Source: a virus (lineage: Duplodnaviria > Heunggongvirae > Uroviricota > Caudoviricetes). From it: 33,624 nt of DNA. Positions within the stretch are counted from its first letter, which is position 1; every line of letters begins with the position of its first letter. Both the position numbers and the translations under genes were made by a program. Of this stretch, positions 22,247-33,624 are shown piece by piece. Under the pieces are notes generated by a model, which was given only the letters and a program-made list of their open reading frames with translations, ran no database searches and was not told where the DNA came from. The stretch lies in the IMG/VR virus record IMGVR_UViG_2531839474_000013, positions 1-33,624 of that record. The stretch is one strand, 5' to 3'.

Positions 22247-23134
22247 TCAGGCTGCCAGATCATCGTTTCTGATGGAAGCATAATAAGCTTTTTCTGCTTC
22301 TGCCGGAGGGATATGACCCAGCCTTCCCAGCAATCGTCGATTGTTATACCAGTCCACCCACGTGAGTGTGGCCAGTTCCACTTCTGCACGGTTTTTCCAG
22401 CTCTTACGGTGTATTACCTCCGCTTTGTAAAGACCATTGATGCTCTCCGCCATCGCGTTGTCATACGAGTCACCTGTACTCCCTGTTGATGCCAGCAGTT
22501 TTGCTTCTTTTAGTCGCTCCGTATAGGCCAGTGATACATACTGAGAACCTTTATCACTGTGATGGACTGTGCCGGACGGCCGACGGGCCCACAACGCCTG
22601 CTCCAGTGCATCCAGCACGAATGTCGTTTCCATAGACGATGAGACTCGCCACCCCACGATACATCCGGCAAACACATCAATGATGAACGCCACATAGACG
22701 AAGCCCTGCCATGTGCTGACGTAAGTAAAATCAGCCACCCACAGCTGGTCAGGACGTTCTGCCACGAACTGACGGTTTACGCGGTCGCCTGCGGAAACGG
22801 CTTTCCGGCTGACGGTAGTACGGACCTTTTTACCCCGGAGAACACCGGCAAGTCCCATAACCGCCATGAGGCGCGCCACTGTACATCTGGCCACCCTGAT
22901 ACCTTCGCGTAACAACTGGCGCCAGACTTTACGCACACCGTACACCTGATGATTTTCATCGTATACGCGCTGTATCTCTCTCTTCAGCCAGTCATCGCGC
23001 TGAGCACGGGCACTGCGTTTATCAGGATGATGTCGCTGTTGCTGACAGTGGTAATACGTTGACGGGGCAATATGCAGTTCACTGCATACCGGTCCGACCC
23101 CGTACTGCTCACGCAGCTTATCCAGCAGCGGCAT
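22247..23134 (-). CDS. IS3-family transposase OrfB (DDE catalytic domain)
   Basis: 295 aa with integrase-core-like motifs (ADFTYV, HSDKGSQY, DNAMAES); in the -1 frame relative to orfA. Confidence 0.9.
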   Translation of the reverse strand: MPLLDKLREQYGVGPVCSELHIAPSTYYHCQQQRHHPDKRSARAQRDDWLKREIQRVYDENHQVYGVRKVWRQLLREGIRVARCTVARLMAVMGLAGVLRGKKVRTTVSRKAVSAGDRVNRQFVAERPDQLWVADFTYVSTWQGFVYVAFIIDVFAGCIVGWRVSSSMETTFVLDALEQALWARRPSGTVHHSDKGSQYVSLAYTERLKEAKLLASTGSTGDSYDNAMAESINGLYKAEVIHRKSWKNRAEVELATLTWVDWYNNRRLLGRLGHIPPAEAEKAYYASIRNDDLAA

Positions 23135-26868: not shown

Positions 26869-27279
26869 ATGAGTAAAATAAACCATCCAATATTTGCTGA
26901 GAGAGTTCGGCAAGCAATGAGCGAACATGGCTGGTCGTTAGCCGGTCTGGCTAAAAAGGTTATGCTGTCCCATACCGCTGTGCGTAAGTGGGCAACAGGA
27001 GAAACCATTGCCAGCGGAGAAAGATTAAAAAGACTTGCCGCGGTAACAGGAAAACCAGAACATTGGTTTTTTATGCCGCTAAATGAACATTCAAAGGAAG
27101 AAGATGCACCACCACTAATCCAGCTTGACGACAAAGAAAAGGCGCTATTGTCCCTTTTTAATCAGTTGCCAGAAACGGAAAAGCTGAGACTAATCATGCA
27201 CACAAAAAGCATTCTTCATGAAATGGATCTTCTAAAAAACGATGTATACGACATAATCAATGATATTCAAAAACAATAA
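26869..27279 (+). CDS. prophage repressor, HTH-XRE, RacR/DicA-like (no S24 peptidase domain)
   Basis: 136 aa; N-terminal HTH; C-terminal EKALLSLFNQLPETEK resembles DicA; divergent from the Cro-like gene. Confidence 0.8.
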   Translation: MSKINHPIFAERVRQAMSEHGWSLAGLAKKVMLSHTAVRKWATGETIASGERLKRLAAVTGKPEHWFFMPLNEHSKEEDAPPLIQLDDKEKALLSLFNQLPETEKLRLIMHTKSILHEMDLLKNDVYDIINDIQKQ

Positions 27280-27379: not shown

Positions 27380-27596
27380 TCATTCCATCAACAACGAACC
27401 GCATCGTTGTCAGGCTAAAGTTCCGCTACCCCGGCGTTAAGGGGAAACAGAGGATTTCTCAGTGGGCGAAGTCAAACATCAGAATGGAAGGCATCAAGGG
27501 ATCAGCAAAGAAACAGCGATGGCGCTTTATATTGATATCAGCGCCATTGCCGGACAGGTAAGAGTTATCAGAGCGGTAACTAAGCGGTATGCGCCT

Positions 27597-27797
27597 TTAC
27601 TTCAGAAAGTCTCTGGTGAGTGCACCGAAGATATTGTCAACGATTTCGTCATCGAACTGCGAGGACTCATCTTCAGTTACAAGGTGACCACAATTTTTGC
27701 AGATGGTTCCCGCGAAACTGTCAGAGCCATGCGGTTTAAAGGATGTGTCAAAGACTTCGCCGCCACATTCTGGGCAAGAAAACTTGATTGTATTCAT
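27597..27797 (-). CDS. hypothetical zinc-ribbon protein (66 aa)
   Basis: CPECGG...CKNCG pair with acidic C-terminus; ATG 27797 with AGAGGAAA 7 nt upstream. A 118-aa plus-strand ORF overlaps it completely, so the assignment is uncertain. Confidence 0.45.
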   Translation of the reverse strand: MNTIKFSCPECGGEVFDTSFKPHGSDSFAGTICKNCGHLVTEDESSQFDDEIVDNIFGALTRDFLK

Positions 27798-27889
27798 AAC
27801 CAATTTCCTCTCGAGTAACAGATCCCTCAGAGGATACCACCTCGCCTGACGTGGTTAAAAGCAGGCAACGCTAACCACAAGGAGCCGAC

Positions 27890-28130: not shown

Positions 28131-28460
28131 ATGGAATTTAAAGATTTACCAATGCAATTCCAGGAAATGGCAGCGAATATAGTTCGTTCCCAACTGGCGA
28201 CTCTTGACCTGAGTACCGTAGAAAAAGAAACCATCGATACTATATCCGGTAACGTGCGTCGTGCCTTTATCGGTCTGTACGAAGAGAAGCAGCTCTCTGA
28301 TAACCAGGATTTACATGAAAAATACTTCCTGGATCTAATGGACATCATTAATAAGGGGTTTGGCTTGTTAATGGAAAAGAAAGGGATTCGGATAGAACCC
28401 CTTGAAAATTGCTTCGTAACAAGAAGCATCAATTCTTTTGATTCAAAACAAGAGAATTAA
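28131..28460 (+). CDS. hypothetical protein (109 aa)
   Basis: ATG with GAGG upstream; 3' end overlaps the convergent ORF by 32 nt. Confidence 0.45.
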   Translation: MEFKDLPMQFQEMAANIVRSQLATLDLSTVEKETIDTISGNVRRAFIGLYEEKQLSDNQDLHEKYFLDLMDIINKGFGLLMEKKGIRIEPLENCFVTRSINSFDSKQEN

Positions 28461-28704
28461 TTACAGATTTAACATGCTCTTTCTCATGATTGAAGCTCTC
28501 AGGGTTGAAAGTGCCCGGCTGAAGCGAGTCGATATAATCAACGAGATTCTTTCGTACCGTTTCATCTTTATTCATGGCAGATGCAAGGTATGAAATTGCT
28601 AACAATGTTATATCACTACGCGCCGCAGCATGCTGTAGTGTTTTATCAAAATCATTAATTTTCCGTATAAGAGAGTTAAGAGTTTCATTGACATCAAACC
28701 CCAT
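28429..28704 (-). CDS. hypothetical helical protein (91 aa)
   Basis: Start placed at ATG 28704 (AGGAGG 5-6 nt upstream). The track's 202-aa form starts at TTG and reads through the GC-rich structured region. Confidence 0.5.
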   Translation of the reverse strand: MGFDVNETLNSLIRKINDFDKTLQHAAARSDITLLAISYLASAMNKDETVRKNLVDYIDSLQPGTFNPESFNHEKEHVKSVINSLVLNQKN

Positions 28705-29265
28705 TTCATCCTCCTGAGGGTTAGTAATTAAGGAGTTCTCCACGGGTGAGGTGGAGTGCGTGCGCCGGACACGGGTGAGCATCCGGCACTGACAGTTTAC
28801 TGAAAGGATATCTCCCTGAAAAGTCAGGGCATAACGCGAAAGCGCACGGCGAAGTTGTTGGTTCATAGATAGCCTGTCGTTAAATTTTCGTCGACCGTGC
28901 GCTTCCGGTTGTGGCACTCCGCGAAATGGCGCGGCGGTAAGTATGGCGGGGTTATTCCTTCCCCGTTGAGGACACCGGGTTGTCAGGTTGACCATACGCT
29001 TAAGTGACAACCCCGCTGCAACGCCCTCTGTTATCAATTTTCTGGTGACGTTTGGCGGTATCAGTTTTACTCCGTGACTGCTCTGCCGCCCTTTTTAAAG
29101 TGAATTTTGTGATGCGGTGAATGCGGCTAAGCGCACGAGGAACAGTTAAAACCAAAAACAGTGTTATGGGTGGATTCTCTGTATCCGGCGTTAATTGTTA
29201 ACTGGTTAACGTCACCTGGAGGCACCAGGCACTGCATCACAAAATTCATTGTTGAGGACGCGATA

Positions 29266-29454
29266 ATGGAAACGTTATTACCAAACGTTAATACGTCTGA
29301 AGGTTGTTTTGAAATTGGTGTCACTATCAGTAACCTTGTATTTACTGAAGATGCCATTAACAAGAGAAAACACGAACGGGAGTTATTAAATAAAATATGC
29401 ATTCTTTCAATGCTGGCCCGTTTACGTCCGATACAAAAAGGATGCTGGCAATGA
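29266..29454 (+). CDS. hypothetical small protein (62 aa)
   Basis: ATG 29266 with GAGG upstream; stop overlaps the next start (ATGA). Confidence 0.4.
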   Translation: METLLPNVNTSEGCFEIGVTISNLVFTEDAINKRKHERELLNKICILSMLARLRPIQKGCWQ

Positions 29455-29642
29455 ATACAGCATTTGCACTTGTTCTGACATTTTTTCTTGTTTCCGAAGA
29501 GCCAGTTGATATTGCAGTCAGTGTTCACAGGACAATGCAGGAGTGTGTGACTGCAGCAACCGAACAGAAAATTCCCGGTAACTGTTACCCGGTCGATAAA
29601 GTTATTCACCAGGATAATAACGAAATCCCGGCAGGTCTTTAA
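29451..29642 (+). CDS. hypothetical small protein with N-terminal hydrophobic segment (63 aa)
   Basis: MNTAFALVLTFFLVSEEP...; AAGGA upstream; coupled to the preceding ORF. Confidence 0.4.
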   Translation: MNTAFALVLTFFLVSEEPVDIAVSVHRTMQECVTAATEQKIPGNCYPVDKVIHQDNNEIPAGL

Positions 29643-29734: not shown

Positions 29735-32206
29735 ATGAGTAAAGTCTTTATTTGCGCCGCCATTCCGGACGAACAGGCAATAAAGGAAGAAGGTGCAGTC
29801 GCTGTAGCCACTGCCATTGAAGCCGGTGATGAACGTCGCGCCCGCGCAAAATTTCACTGGCAATTCCTGGAACATTATCCGGCTGCTCAGGACTGCGCTT
29901 ATAAATTTATTATCTGCGAGGATAAACCTGGCATACCCCGCCCTGCCCTCGATTCATGGGATGCTGAATATATGCAGGAAAACCGCTGGGATGAGGATTC
30001 TGCTTCTTTTGTCCCGGTTGAGACTGAATCCGATCTGATGAACGTCACTTTTGACAAGCTGGCCCCTGAAGTACAGAACGCTGTCATGGTTAAGTTCGAC
30101 ACATGTGAAAACATCACCGTTGATATGGTGATTAGCGCGCAGGAATTGTTGCAGGAAGACATGGCAACATTCGACGGACATATCGTTGAAGCGTTGATGA
30201 AAATGCCAGAAGTTAACGCCATGTATCCGGAGCTTAAGCTGCATGCCATCGGGTGGGTTAAGCATAAATGTAAGCCTGGTGCCAAATGGCCCGAAATTCA
30301 GGCAGAGATGCGCATCTGGAAAAAACGTCGCGAAGGTGAACGCAAGGAAACCGGAAAATACACGTCTGTTGTTGATCTCGCCCGCGCCAGAGCCAATCAA
30401 CAGAACACTGAAAATTCAACAGGAAAAATCAGCCCGGTCATTGCTGCCACTCATCGCGAATACAAGCAGACATGGAAAACACTGGATGACGAACTGGCCT
30501 ACGCTCTCTGGCCTGGTGATGTGGATGCCGGAAACATTGACGGCAGCATCCATCGCTGGGCAAAAAATGAAGTTATCGACAACGACCGCGAAGACTGGAA
30601 GCGTATCTCGGCATCAATGCGCAAACAGCCTGATGCCCTTCGCTACGACCGCCAGACTATTTTTGGCCTTGTCCGTGAACGTCCGATCGACATTCACAAA
30701 GACCCCATAGCACTGAACAAATACATCACCGAATACCTGACGACAAAGGGCGTGTTTGAAAATGAAGAAACAAACCAGAGCACAACTGATACTCTCCAGT
30801 CACCAGAAACACAAACTGATGCAGTGGAAACGGAAATACCGGACAACCAAAAAAACGAAACCAAACCGGAAGCCGAACCATCTGTAGAGCGTGAAGGGCC
30901 GTTCTACTTCCTCTCCACAGACAAGGACAGAGAAAAATACGGTCGCGCAAACAAACTTTCTGGTCTGGATAAGGCACTGGCTGCAGGCGCCACTGAAATC
31001 ACAAAAGAAGAATATTTCGCCCGAAAAAACGGCACATACACAGGCTCACAACAAAATACAGATACAGCTGAAAAGACAGAACAACCAGAGCCGATAAAAG
31101 TTACCGCTGACGAAGTAAACAAAATTATGCAGGCAGCCAATATCAGCCAGCCTGACGCCGATAAGTTGCTTGCTGCATCACGTGGTGAATTTATTGAAGG
31201 GATTAGCGACCCGAATGATCCGAAATGGATTAAGGGGATCCAGACCCGCGATACTGTGAACCAGAACCAGCAAGAAACGGAACAGAACGACCAAAAAGCG
31301 GAACAAAACAGCCCAAATACGCAACAAAACGAGCCAGAAACGAAACAACCTGAACCAGTAGTGCAACAGGAACCGGAAAAAATCTGCACCGCCTGCGGTC
31401 AGACCGGCGGCGGCAACTGCCCTGATTGTGGCGCGGTGATGGGCGACGCAACATACCAGGAAACATTCGATGAAGAGAATCAGCCTGAAGTTCAGGAAAA
31501 TGATCCGGAGGAAATGGAAGGCACTGAACATCAACACAAGGAGAACACTGGCGGCAATCAGCATCACAATAGCGATAATGAAACTGGCGAGACGGCAGAT
31601 CACTCAATTAAGGCGAACGGTCATCAAAAAATCACATCCACCAGCAGAACGGGGAACCATCTAATGATCGACCTTGAAACCATGGGAAAAAATCCCGATG
31701 CCCCGATCATCTCAATAGGTGCAATATTTTTCGATCCGCAAACCGGAGATATGGGACCGGAATTTAGTAAGACTATCGATCTGGAAACTGCTGGCGGAGT
31801 CATTGATCGGGACACCATTAAATGGTGGCTTAAGCAATCACGCGAAGCGCAATCTGCCATTATGACCGATGAAATCCCGTTAGATGATGCACTGTTACAA
31901 TTGCGGGAATTTATCGACGAAAACTCCGGTGAATTTTTTGTTCAGGTCTGGGGAAATGGAGCCAACTTCGACAACACGATTTTGCGCCGTTCATACGAAC
32001 GGCAGGGGATCCCCTGCCCGTGGCGTTACTACAACGATCGCGATGTACGCACAATCGTTGAGCTGGGGAAAGCCATAGACTTCGATGCCAGAACGGCTAT
32101 TCCATTCGAAGGTGAGCGCCATAATGCACTTGATGACGCCCGTTACCAGGCAAAATACGTTTCAGTTATCTGGCAAAAACTGATCCCGAGTCAGGCTGAT
32201 TTTTAA
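29735..32206 (+). CDS. large phage exonuclease: N-terminal region of unknown function, low-complexity linker with C4 zinc ribbon, C-terminal DEDDh 3'-5' exonuclease domain
   Basis: 823 aa. C-terminal motifs IDLETMG (Exo I), [12 protein letters not shown] (Exo II), HNALDDARY (Exo III). Linker is Q/E/N/T-rich with [16 protein letters not shown]. Lies in the exo position upstream of xis and int. Confidence 0.8.
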
Positions 32207-32267
32207 TGTTCAACCGTCGCCAGTTGTCGTTGATATTCTGCAACTGGCGCGTTCCGGAGTGATAGCC

Positions 32268-32537
32268 ATGAGCGAACAGTACCTGATAACGCTCGACGAG
32301 TGGAAACCAAAACGGTTCAGTCTCCCAATAACAAACACTACCCTGGTGAAATACGGAAAACTAGGATACATCGTTCCAAGGCCACAAAAAATTCGTGGGC
32401 GTTGGCTGATAGATCGCCGAGCAGTATTTGTTGGGCCTGGTGAAACGGGAATTGCGCCGGAAATTCATACTGGCGATGATGATGCACTGAAGGAGATTTT
32501 AACTCATGTCACCGAGGCCACGAAAAAACAGCACTGA
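32268..32537 (+). CDS. xis: excisionase-like protein
   Basis: Begins MSEQYLITLDEW, similar to lambda Xis MYLTLQEW; immediately upstream of and overlapping int; GGAGTGA ribosome-binding site. Confidence 0.65.
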   Translation: MSEQYLITLDEWKPKRFSLPITNTTLVKYGKLGYIVPRPQKIRGRWLIDRRAVFVGPGETGIAPEIHTGDDDALKEILTHVTEATKKQH

Positions 32538-33624
32538 CGTAGCCGGTCTTTACGAAAAGTTTGATCGCAGAACTGGCAGAGTTTACTACCAGTATAAAAA
32601 TCCTGTGACTGGAAAATTTCACGGACTCGGAACAGACAAAGGTAAGGCAGAAAAAATCGCTTCCACAGCCAATCAGCGAATAGCTGCAGCAGAAGCTGAA
32701 TATTTCATGCGCAAAATTGATGAAAGTCCGTCAGCAACAAAACGTCGGGGTATCAGATTAAAGGCATGGGTTGATCGATATCTGAAAATACAGGACACAC
32801 GACTGAAAAATGGAGATATTGCAGCTACAACTCACAAAGAAAAAACTCGAATGGCTGCATACCTGGTTTCCCGTCTGGGAAACCACCCATTGAAAGAACT
32901 GGAAGTAAGAGACTTTGCATTAATACTGGATGAGTGGCTGGATAAAGACATGGTCAGCACAGCGAGAGTAAATCGTGGATTATGGGTTGATATTTATAAA
33001 GAAGCACAGCATGCAGGGGAAGTTCCTCCTGGATGGAATCCTCCGGAGGCTACCCGTAAACCGATCCCTAAAGTAACCAGAGCCAGGCTCACCATGGAAG
33101 ACTGGCAAAAAATTTACAATGCAACGCCTGAAAAACACTTTATCCGTAACGCAATGCTTCTTGCGATTGTTACTGGTCAGCGCCGTGATGACATTTGCCA
33201 CATGCGTTTTTCAGATGTGTGGAACGAACACTTGCATATCACCCAGGGAAAAACCGGAATGCGTCTGGCGTTACCGCTTACACTACGCTGTGATGCCATT
33301 GGGATAACGTTAAAAGAAGTTATTGATGGGTGCCGAGACAGAATATTAAGTCCATATCTAATCCATAGTCGGCACCAGAAACAACCGAAGCCGATGAGTA
33401 AAGACAACCTGAGCGACTACTTTGCCAAAGCACGGGATCTGGCTGGGATAATTCCACCAGCAGGAAAAACTCCGCCAACATTTCATGAACAACGCTCTCT
33501 ATCAGAACGGCTGTACCGTGCACAGGGTATCGATACAAAAACATTACTAGGACATAAAGTCCAGGCAACCACCGATCGCTATAACGATACTCGAGGTCAG
33601 GAATGGGTTAAGTTGGTTATTTGA
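32506..33624 (+). CDS. int: tyrosine integrase, lambda Int family
   Basis: 372 aa; C-terminal HEQRSLSERLY...LLGHK...DRYNDTRGQEW matches the lambda Int catalytic region; AAGGAGA upstream; stop at 33622..33624, so the attachment site should lie just beyond the window. Confidence 0.9.
   Translation: MSPRPRKNSTDVAGLYEKFDRRTGRVYYQYKNPVTGKFHGLGTDKGKAEKIASTANQRIAAAEAEYFMRKIDESPSATKRRGIRLKAWVDRYLKIQDTRLKNGDIAATTHKEKTRMAAYLVSRLGNHPLKELEVRDFALILDEWLDKDMVSTARVNRGLWVDIYKEAQHAGEVPPGWNPPEATRKPIPKVTRARLTMEDWQKIYNATPEKHFIRNAMLLAIVTGQRRDDICHMRFSDVWNEHLHITQGKTGMRLALPLTLRCDAIGITLKEVIDGCRDRILSPYLIHSRHQKQPKPMSKDNLSDYFAKARDLAGIIPPAGKTPPTFHEQRSLSERLYRAQGIDTKTLLGHKVQATTDRYNDTRGQEWVKLVI

Follow-up and report, generated by a model that had tools for sequence, protein, structure and literature searches.

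A YdfE-type protein with a predicted DEDDh 3'-5' exonuclease domain in the exo slot of a lambdoid prophage without a recognizable annealase

Why would an annealase-less lambdoid phage carry a 3'-5' exonuclease in its "exo" slot, when such enzymes normally oppose recombination? The puzzle is posed by a gene in the Caudoviricetes record IMGVR_UViG_2531839474_000013 of IMG/VR, of which positions 1 to 33,624 were analyzed as one stretch of DNA (the window). The gene is an 823-amino-acid (aa) open reading frame (ORF) that starts with ATG and has a GAGG 8 nt upstream. An earlier note, made from the letters alone, had proposed that its product ends in a DEDDh 3'-5' exonuclease domain and not in a PD-(D/E)XK nuclease. 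A domain search bore this out. The Pfam family PF16473 (Rv2179c-like 3'-5' exoribonuclease) matches aa 641–813 with 227.8 bits against a cut-off of 27 (E = 9.4e-68), and the match spans the entire model (positions 1–177 of 177).

29735..32206, plus strand: whole gene, YdfE-type exonuclease (ORF; phrog_2082; K-12 ydfE; annotated genes)
31655..32173, plus strand: DEDDh 3'-5' exonuclease domain, aa 641–813, Rv2179c-like/DexA-like (Pfam, phmmer, catalytic residues)

The catalytic set consists of D646 and E648 (in DLET), D746 (NFDNT), and H796 and D801 (HNALDD), which align with D7/E9, D119, and H186/D191 of T4 DexA. These motifs are retained in 118 of 127 DEDDh-type homologs. By profile and by these five residues, the domain is assigned to the DEDDh/DnaQ-like exonucleases, subfamily PF16473. 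A phmmer search of the PDB sequences with the whole protein recovered T4 DexA (8KEL, E = 1.8e-6) as its sole structure; the Rv2179c structure was not recovered in that search. A profile of the DEDDh domain gave one further PDB match, 7T2S, which is named "3'-5' exonuclease." An RNase H-like alpha/beta fold is predicted for the domain by homology to the solved DexA structure 8KEL. The second catalytic residue of DexA is printed as "E12" in the paper; residue 12 is a glycine in both of our alignments, and E9 is the residue that aligns.

Comparison with Escherichia coli K-12 provided the identity of the whole gene. The PHROGs family phrog_2082 ("exonuclease") matches the protein over its full length, and aa 1–256 are 96% identical to ydfE (b1577) of the K-12 Qin prophage. 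By this homology, the gene is the intact orthologue of a K-12 pseudogene. The Pfam domains PF27430 (YdfE_N) and PF27432 (YdfE_C), which belong to newer Pfam releases and were seen precomputed on homologs, are both present on cluster representatives P0001–P0120, which are 87–93% identical to the protein. Together with the YdfE homology, they place it in the YdfE scaffold family. Genes 93–97% identical are labeled "exonuclease" or "3'-5' exonuclease" in E. coli and phages. The gene is real and maintained, not a chance ORF, and its type is already known: it is abundant, annotated by PGAP, represented by Pfam domains named after ydfE, and part of a module tabulated in a 2025 survey. Literature searches on ydfE, on ydfE with dicB and exonuclease, and on PF16473 found no functional study of the protein; the earlier note, which left the function open, was fair in doing so, as the literature gave no experiment on it.

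The protein has three parts: a YdfE_N/YdfE_C scaffold from aa 1 to about 440, a disordered acidic linker at about 465–640, and the exonuclease at 641–823.

29735..30349, plus strand: N-terminal alpha/beta domain, aa 1–205, Pfam YdfE_N in homologs (predicted structure)
30467..30769, plus strand: helical domain, aa 245–345 (AlphaFold2 helices at 247–338, BLASTP against RecE, dN/dS)
30887..31033, plus strand: conserved motif, aa 385–433, GPFYF...GRANKL...EI..EEY.ARKNGTY (alignment A3)
31127..31609, plus strand: RecE-like acidic segment, aa about 465–625 (BLASTP, NF007259, megablast)
31385..31429, plus strand: C4 zinc ribbon C551, C554, C562, C565 (regular-expression match)

Structure prediction of the N-terminal 350 aa, which the earlier note had suggested, was run and gave a mean predicted local distance difference test (pLDDT) score of 81.6, with an alpha/beta domain at 1–205, a disordered loop, and a helical domain at 245–340. 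The helices at 247–338 have pLDDT values of about 78–90, and BLASTP found this domain weakly shared with RecE (aa about 278–350). No informative structural neighbors were found for the modeled 350 aa. The motif at aa 385–433 is the most conserved stretch of the whole scaffold family, including the Rad52-like fusions described below; the columns G-P-F-Y...R-A-N-K...E-I..E-Y..K are nearly invariant in a 37-sequence alignment (A3). It did not align to K-12 RecE; as a peptide, it may serve to bind a partner.

A Q/E/N/T-rich linker with a C4 zinc ribbon had been described in the earlier note and was found at aa 511–640 (15% E, 13% Q, 11% T, 10% N). The ribbon has the spacing C551-x2-C554...C562-x2-C565, occurs in 123 of 127 DEDDh-type homologs, and has the same CxxC..CxxC in RecE. 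The note had also pointed to a RecE-like peptide, and this peptide is indeed present in RecE of the K-12 Rac prophage: on our reading of the BLASTP alignment, aa about 465–625 are about 80% identical to RecE residues about 448–591, zinc ribbon included. By megablast, nt 1453–1856 of the gene match recE of Rac-SA53.

Gene order around the exonuclease is cI-like repressor, ydfC-like, dicF, dicB, ydfD, exo, xis, int. The exonuclease gene is the last of a dicF-dicB-ydfD early-left operon and lies in the exo position upstream of xis and int that had been noted before, with gaps of 92 nt from ydfD, as in K-12, and 52 nt to xis.

26869..27279, plus strand: cI/DicA-like helix-turn-helix repressor, marks the immunity region (Pfam HTH_3; tblastn with K-12 DicA)
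29040..29091, plus strand: DicF small RNA (Rfam RF00039, 76.7 bits against a cut-off of 48, E = 4e-16)
29266..29454, plus strand: dicB, cell-division inhibitor (Pfam PF05358, E = 5e-36, residues 36–97 of ORF 29161–29454)
29451..29642, plus strand: ydfD, DUF1482 (Pfam PF07358, E = 8e-23; K-12 Qin order alike)
32259..32537, plus strand: excisionase (Pfam Exc; phrog_629, E = 5e-26)
32506..33624, plus strand: putative tyrosine integrase (position and synteny with annotated integrases only)

The same operon setting is found in K-12 Qin and in phages Tritos, HannyBb, vB_EcoS-640R1, and Evi, although in Evi the gene follows Kil and dicF and dicB are missing. Consensus matches for promoters and terminators near the gene were no more frequent than in shuffled sequence, and nothing is concluded from them.

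Searches with Pfam, PHROGs, and tblastn found no Bet, RecT, Erf, or Rad52-like gene between the exonuclease and the repressor or elsewhere in the early region, in agreement with the earlier note, which had seen no such gene up to the immunity region. The note had described this interval as small ORFs and an ORF-free structured region. Both are present; what it missed is that the structured region contains DicF and that the small ORFs include dicB, ydfD, and a ydfC homolog. GamL, Gp157, KilR, and Mu gp6-like genes, which neighbor the Rad52-like fusions described below, were sought in the window and none was found. The Pfam and PHROGs matches across the early region include no gene for a single-stranded DNA-binding protein (SSB), for which no separate test was made.

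One explanation for this pattern is a two-component recombinase whose annealase has gone unrecognized among the small upstream ORFs or elsewhere in the prophage. Three phage-conserved plus-strand ORFs of 118, 72, and 109 aa (phrog_21318, phrog_1744, and phrog_6937; one is the ydfC homolog) are the candidates for such a partner. None of them matches a single-strand annealing protein family in Pfam or PHROGs, so no recombinase gene is seen in the adjacent small ORFs, and all are far shorter than known annealases. The remaining early region (O-like, CII-like, transposase, HNH/DUF968, Q, and methyltransferase genes) holds replication, methylase, HNH, Q, and transposase genes only. Furthermore, 3'-5' polarity leaves 5' tails, the wrong substrate for Bet- or RecT-type partners, no annealase is annotated in the complete genome of phage HannyBb, and Tritos is scored negative for a single-strand annealing protein (SAP) in Table 1 of a survey of lambdoid recombination modules (PMC12315714). 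A hidden annealase is therefore very improbable.

Several smaller features of this region were also recorded. The 118-aa ORF (27462–27818, plus strand; phrog_21318, E = 2e-66) overlaps an antisense ORF at 27597–27803 (minus strand) of 68 aa, which has two CxxC pairs resembling a zinc ribbon and matches phrog_4852 (E = 3.5e-10). The 109-aa ORF ends at 28460, leaving 580 nt to DicF. A minus-strand ORF of 202 aa at 28429–29037, which ends 3 nt before DicF, is probably spurious; the whole ORF had no Pfam match and its C-terminal 91 aa had no PHROGs match. The transposase ORF (22247–23134, minus strand, 295 aa; phrog_157, E = 3e-139) lies within the early-right region, and the prophage may therefore be disrupted or carry an insertion sequence (IS) element.

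We surveyed homolog neighborhoods for a conserved partner gene, as the earlier note had proposed; the set comprised the window and 80 IMG/VR loci, each taken with flanks of up to 8 kb. None of the 81 sequences had a gene for RecT, Bet, Erf, the Rad52-like domain, lambda Exo, the RecE nuclease, Gam, GamL, or Gp157, and a tblastn search with RecT likewise gave zero matches in the window and the 80 related loci. DicB and YdfD were present in 80 of 81. Two diverged members, P0243 and P0142, lie directly before xis/int or int and also have no annealase; in P0243, whose nuclease domain is 60% identical, the gene is located at icd and follows a gene of the Rrf2 family.

The gene is widespread. It is present at 80% coverage or more in 3,534 of 5,426 complete E. 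coli genomes (about 65%), and its protein cluster has 23,183 member sequences. Genes 92–97% identical occur in phages Tritos, HannyBb, PhiR42_1, and mEp460, in PPompW prophages, and in E. coli genomes. Values of dN/dS (nonsynonymous to synonymous substitution rates) calculated against Tritos, HannyBb, and Evi are 0.10–0.13 in the N-terminal domain, 0.21 in the helical domain, and 0.16–0.18 in the DEDDh domain; the Q/E/N-rich linker has a value of about 1. Purifying selection acts on the folded domains but not on the linker. In the comparison with phage Evi, dS rises from 0.07 for the N-terminal domain to 1.06 for the DEDDh domain. This jump between modules, along with a linker that is about 80% identical to that of Rac RecE, points to recombination breakpoints at the domain borders, and the low-complexity linker is likely a crossover zone.

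These data also bear on whether the gene is a decaying remnant, a functionless domain-swap accident that is passively carried. The K-12 copy is a pseudogene, the neighboring int is frameshifted in strain 14EC020, and the linker evolves neutrally, all of which would fit decay. A remnant is nevertheless hard to credit, with dN/dS at 0.10–0.21 across three folded domains, catalytic residues conserved, and the 823-aa frame unbroken in thousands of genomes as well as in phages that form plaques.

The module to which the gene belongs has been described. Zheng et al. (Genome Res 2025, PMC12315714) define a class with Tritos as prototype (Table 1, class B) that has a nuclease, lacks SAP, SSB, and anti-RecBCD genes, and has many Chi sites; DnaQ-like nucleases in lambdoid recombination (Rec) modules are thus already in print there. 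The Tritos gene has 95.7% nucleotide identity over the whole gene and the same neighborhood. The window contains 16 Chi octamers (GCTGGTGG) where 1.34 are expected, a count reached by 0 of 100 shuffles, and 11 of the 16 are on the late-gene strand.

718, 897, 10987, 14697, 15177, 15998, 18334, 18391, 20023, 31638, and 33454, minus strand: Chi octamers (examples)

The window fits the Tritos-type class of lambdoid Rec modules, and in lambdoid prophages of the Qin/Tritos type the exonuclease is the sole gene of the recombination module.

We tentatively favor, at somewhat less than an even chance, a DNA exonuclease that trims 3' ends for the phage's DNA metabolism and leaves recombination to host RecBCD and Chi. 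The substrate is more probably DNA than RNA, because DexA and EcD, its closest relatives among tested proteins, are exonucleases that act on DNA. Given its place as the last gene of a repressor-controlled early-left operon, the enzyme would appear together with the other early-left products once the prophage is induced or a cell is infected, but would not be made in a quiescent lysogen. A two-metal 3'->5' exonuclease would then act on DNA 3' ends, as DexA and EcD do, and trim 3' tails or flaps from linear intermediates of replication and packaging. The trimmed molecules would stay substrates for RecBCD or for packaging, with ends blunt enough for RecBCD to enter, or the intermediates would simply be tidied. 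Strand exchange would be left to host RecBCD-Chi-RecA, since the phage is rich in Chi but lacks both an annealase and a Gam-type inhibitor of RecBCD. The scaffold would target the nuclease; this is presumed because RecE has a 5'-3' exonuclease on that same scaffold and proteins of other prophages have a Rad52-like annealase on it.

Several points weigh against this proposal. A pro-recombination role is not obvious, because 3'-5' exonucleases generally destroy the recombinogenic 3' tail, and the survey states that they "usually inhibit homologous recombination" (PMC12315714). It also considers that DnaQ-type genes located beside int may lie outside the Rec module (PMC12315714). The step in which ends are blunted for RecBCD draws on general knowledge of E. 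coli, and the timing of expression on gene order only. The founder of the family, Rv2179c, is an RNase, making an RNA substrate possible. Finally, most of the surveyed loci are close relatives (identity of at least 92%), and the absence of annealases from them therefore shows consistency and not independence.

An alternative role for the enzyme would be superinfection exclusion, with the nuclease degrading incoming foreign nucleic acid. T4 DexA and the E. coli protein EcD ("HREX") are 3'-5' DNA exonucleases; EcD digests T4 DNA containing hydroxymethylcytosine, and EcD expressed from a plasmid protects cells from T4 (PMC12153337). A preprint reports that prophage DEDDh exonucleases of less than 500 aa with auxiliary domains ("TONDO") defend against MS2 and Qbeta by trimming the 3' ends of these RNA phages. 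EcD (HAK9828821.1) was recovered here from its cloning primers as a 189-aa PF16473 protein with the reported A78.

L032:5682-6248 in IMGVR_UViG_2579778812_000023, minus strand: EcD (cloning primers)

The EcD locus is the early operon of a P2-like prophage (Cox, DUF4761, DUF4754, EcD, ParE-like, Dam methylase, DUF4406), and EcD therefore belongs to a phage, not to the chromosome proper. In the supplement, the reverse primer is printed with one A more than the recovered gene has. That EcD might itself be the C-terminal domain of the window protein was considered and rejected; it is a separate P2-like prophage protein.

Kinship with these nucleases favors exclusion, since EcD belongs to the same Pfam family and is 38% identical over aa 644–823, and so does the retention of the gene in about 65% of complete E. 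coli genomes, where many copies are in prophages that are probably defective. Residues of the proposed HREX signature differ, however. The proposed readers of 5-hydroxymethylcytosine (5hmC), W152 and D169 in DexA and W132 and E145 in EcD, correspond to Y766 and K779 here, with the MAFFT alignment near D169 uncertain because of an indel. The "dimer-only" substitution of EcD is also absent: DexA D90, which is A78 in EcD, is D718 in the window protein. With the D90 equivalent kept, the 5hmC residues different, and the domain not stand-alone, the protein does not appear to carry the HREX/EcD-type signature. None of the PADLOC defense models matched significantly; the best match had E = 0.018 and covered 23 residues. 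In addition, the gene lies deep in a repressor-controlled early-left operon rather than where a moron expressed in the lysogen would be, its scaffold is common to recombination proteins, and K-12 tolerates the disruption of its copy by IS2. On balance, an exclusion nuclease is unlikely, though it deserves to be taken seriously.

The name of the Pfam family, taken from the Mycobacterium tuberculosis exoribonuclease Rv2179c, points in another direction, toward a counter-defense or RNA nuclease of the lytic phase. Such an enzyme would be a 3'-5' exoribonuclease or oligonucleotidase acting on host or defense RNAs, on nucleotide signals, or on operon RNA such as DicF. Early expression alongside the host-manipulating dicF, dicB, and ydfD would suit this role, and many NCBI copies are named "3'-5' exoribonuclease"; those names derive from the Pfam family, not from experiment. 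Among relatives that have been tested, the nearest are DNases, no link to a known defense signal was found, and the gene occurs outside the dicF/dicB setting, after Kil in phage Evi and after the Rrf2-family gene in the P0243 prophage. We regard an RNA-directed role as improbable. For the same reason, as it occurs without dicF or dicB, a role for the gene in processing DicF is unlikely.

The trimming proposal assigns a targeting function to the scaffold, and the distribution of the scaffold is informative on this point. An exhaustive HMMER search with aa 1–640 found only 250 representatives among 1.84 billion, which makes the family narrow, and all members with a named source are Enterobacterales. 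Domain-wise BLAST of the long representatives revealed free shuffling of N-termini and C-terminal modules, in which a YdfE-type or RecE-type N-terminus (Pfam Exonuc_VIII) is joined to one of three C-terminal modules. The first module is the DEDDh domain (P0122, P0128, P0142, and P0243). In phage vB_EcoS-640R1, a RecE-type N-terminus is followed by a DEDDh domain 99% identical to that of the window, in a dicB-ydfD-exo-xis-int setting. The second is the RecE PD-(D/E)XK/DUF3799 nuclease.

The third module is about 275 aa long, has no Pfam match above threshold, and has a conserved KKSLTDAxKKALSxLGFSAD. Weak matches to Pfam Rad52_Rad22 occur in 9 of 14 members. A sequence-profile search of the PDB found nothing, and the likeness to RAD52 comes from structure-based search only: the six best PDB matches of an AlphaFold model (pLDDT 81.7) are human RAD52 (E = 3.6e-6 to 2.5e-5, probability 1.0). 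The module is probably a RAD52-like annealase, as judged from this model. Fusions that carry it are about 780 aa long, are named "exodeoxyribonuclease VIII" at NCBI (e.g., P0139; P0270, L009:6001-8370; and P0332, L010:6001-8364), and come from Enterobacter, Citrobacter, Klebsiella, Pantoea, and Kosakonia prophages. No nuclease domain was detectable in them, and the NCBI name is probably a misnomer. They are probably the "RecE-2" proteins of PMC12315714, which are described there as having no nuclease domain. Their genes follow Kil/KilR. GamL lies directly before the fusion gene in the Citrobacter loci (L010 and L011), and Gp157 (Sipho_Gp157) comes after it, directly in Enterobacter and one gene later in Citrobacter, so that the surroundings are those of a recombination module.

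The earlier note had also missed the wider setting of the gene: an intact ydfE of Qin-type prophages, belonging to a Tritos-type class already in print, with a scaffold shared with RecE-type and Rad52-like fusions. We speculate, with a modest chance of being right, that the YdfE/RecE scaffold is a targeting module for interchangeable effectors, acting at phage DNA ends or on a host partner such as RecBCD, SSB, or the replisome. The DEDDh version would then represent an annealase-free, 3'-trimming strategy that cooperates with host RecBCD-Chi, or would serve also as an exclusion nuclease against competing phages. If true, this would define a previously unstudied annealase-free phage strategy. 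The large N-terminal region of RecE, called "of unknown function" in reviews (PMC11611040), is a long-standing puzzle in recombineering, and the presence of the same or related scaffolds on three DNA-end effectors makes its role directly testable. The plaque-forming carriers Tritos, HannyBb, and mEp460 are usable for genetics. There is also a consequence for annotation, as many Enterobacteriaceae "exodeoxyribonuclease VIII" entries appear to be Rad52-like annealase fusions and not nucleases.

Compared with known systems, the protein resembles RecE (exonuclease VIII of Rac) in being a large acidic protein at the same operon position, and aa 262–340 are weakly similar to it. The first 260 aa differ between the two, and the RecE nuclease is a PD-(D/E)XK 5'-3' exonuclease (aa about 600–866) unrelated to the DEDDh domain. 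In Rac, recT directly follows recE, whereas the window has xis in this place and no recT. The NCBIfam model for RecE (NF007259) scores 284.8 bits against a cut-off of 1269, with the match confined to aa 452–625. By score, nuclease domain, and partner gene, the protein is not a member of the RecE/exonuclease VIII family.

DexA is 32% identical to the window domain in pairwise comparison and 24% identical in a six-sequence alignment (A4), with all DEDDh residues conserved. Both DexA (PDB 8KEL and 8KEN) and EcD are stand-alone proteins of 189–227 aa without a scaffold, whereas the window domain is fused to a 640-aa N-terminal region. The Rad52-like fusions share with YdfE the scaffold (27–50% identity over aa 1–350), the GPFY..RANKL..EEY motif, and the operon position; they differ in a C-terminal 275 aa that is annealase-like in the model, in their GamL and Gp157 flanks, and in lacking the zinc ribbon. 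The Tritos nuclease, for which PMC12315714 gives no domain dissection or test of the protein, is the same gene type with no essential difference. K-12 YdfE stops after about 256 aa through IS2 and lacks the linker and nuclease, in contrast to the full 823 aa of the window protein, and its gene is placed as in the window: ydfD of the dicF-dicB-ydfD operon ends 92 nt ahead of it, and the integrase lies downstream.

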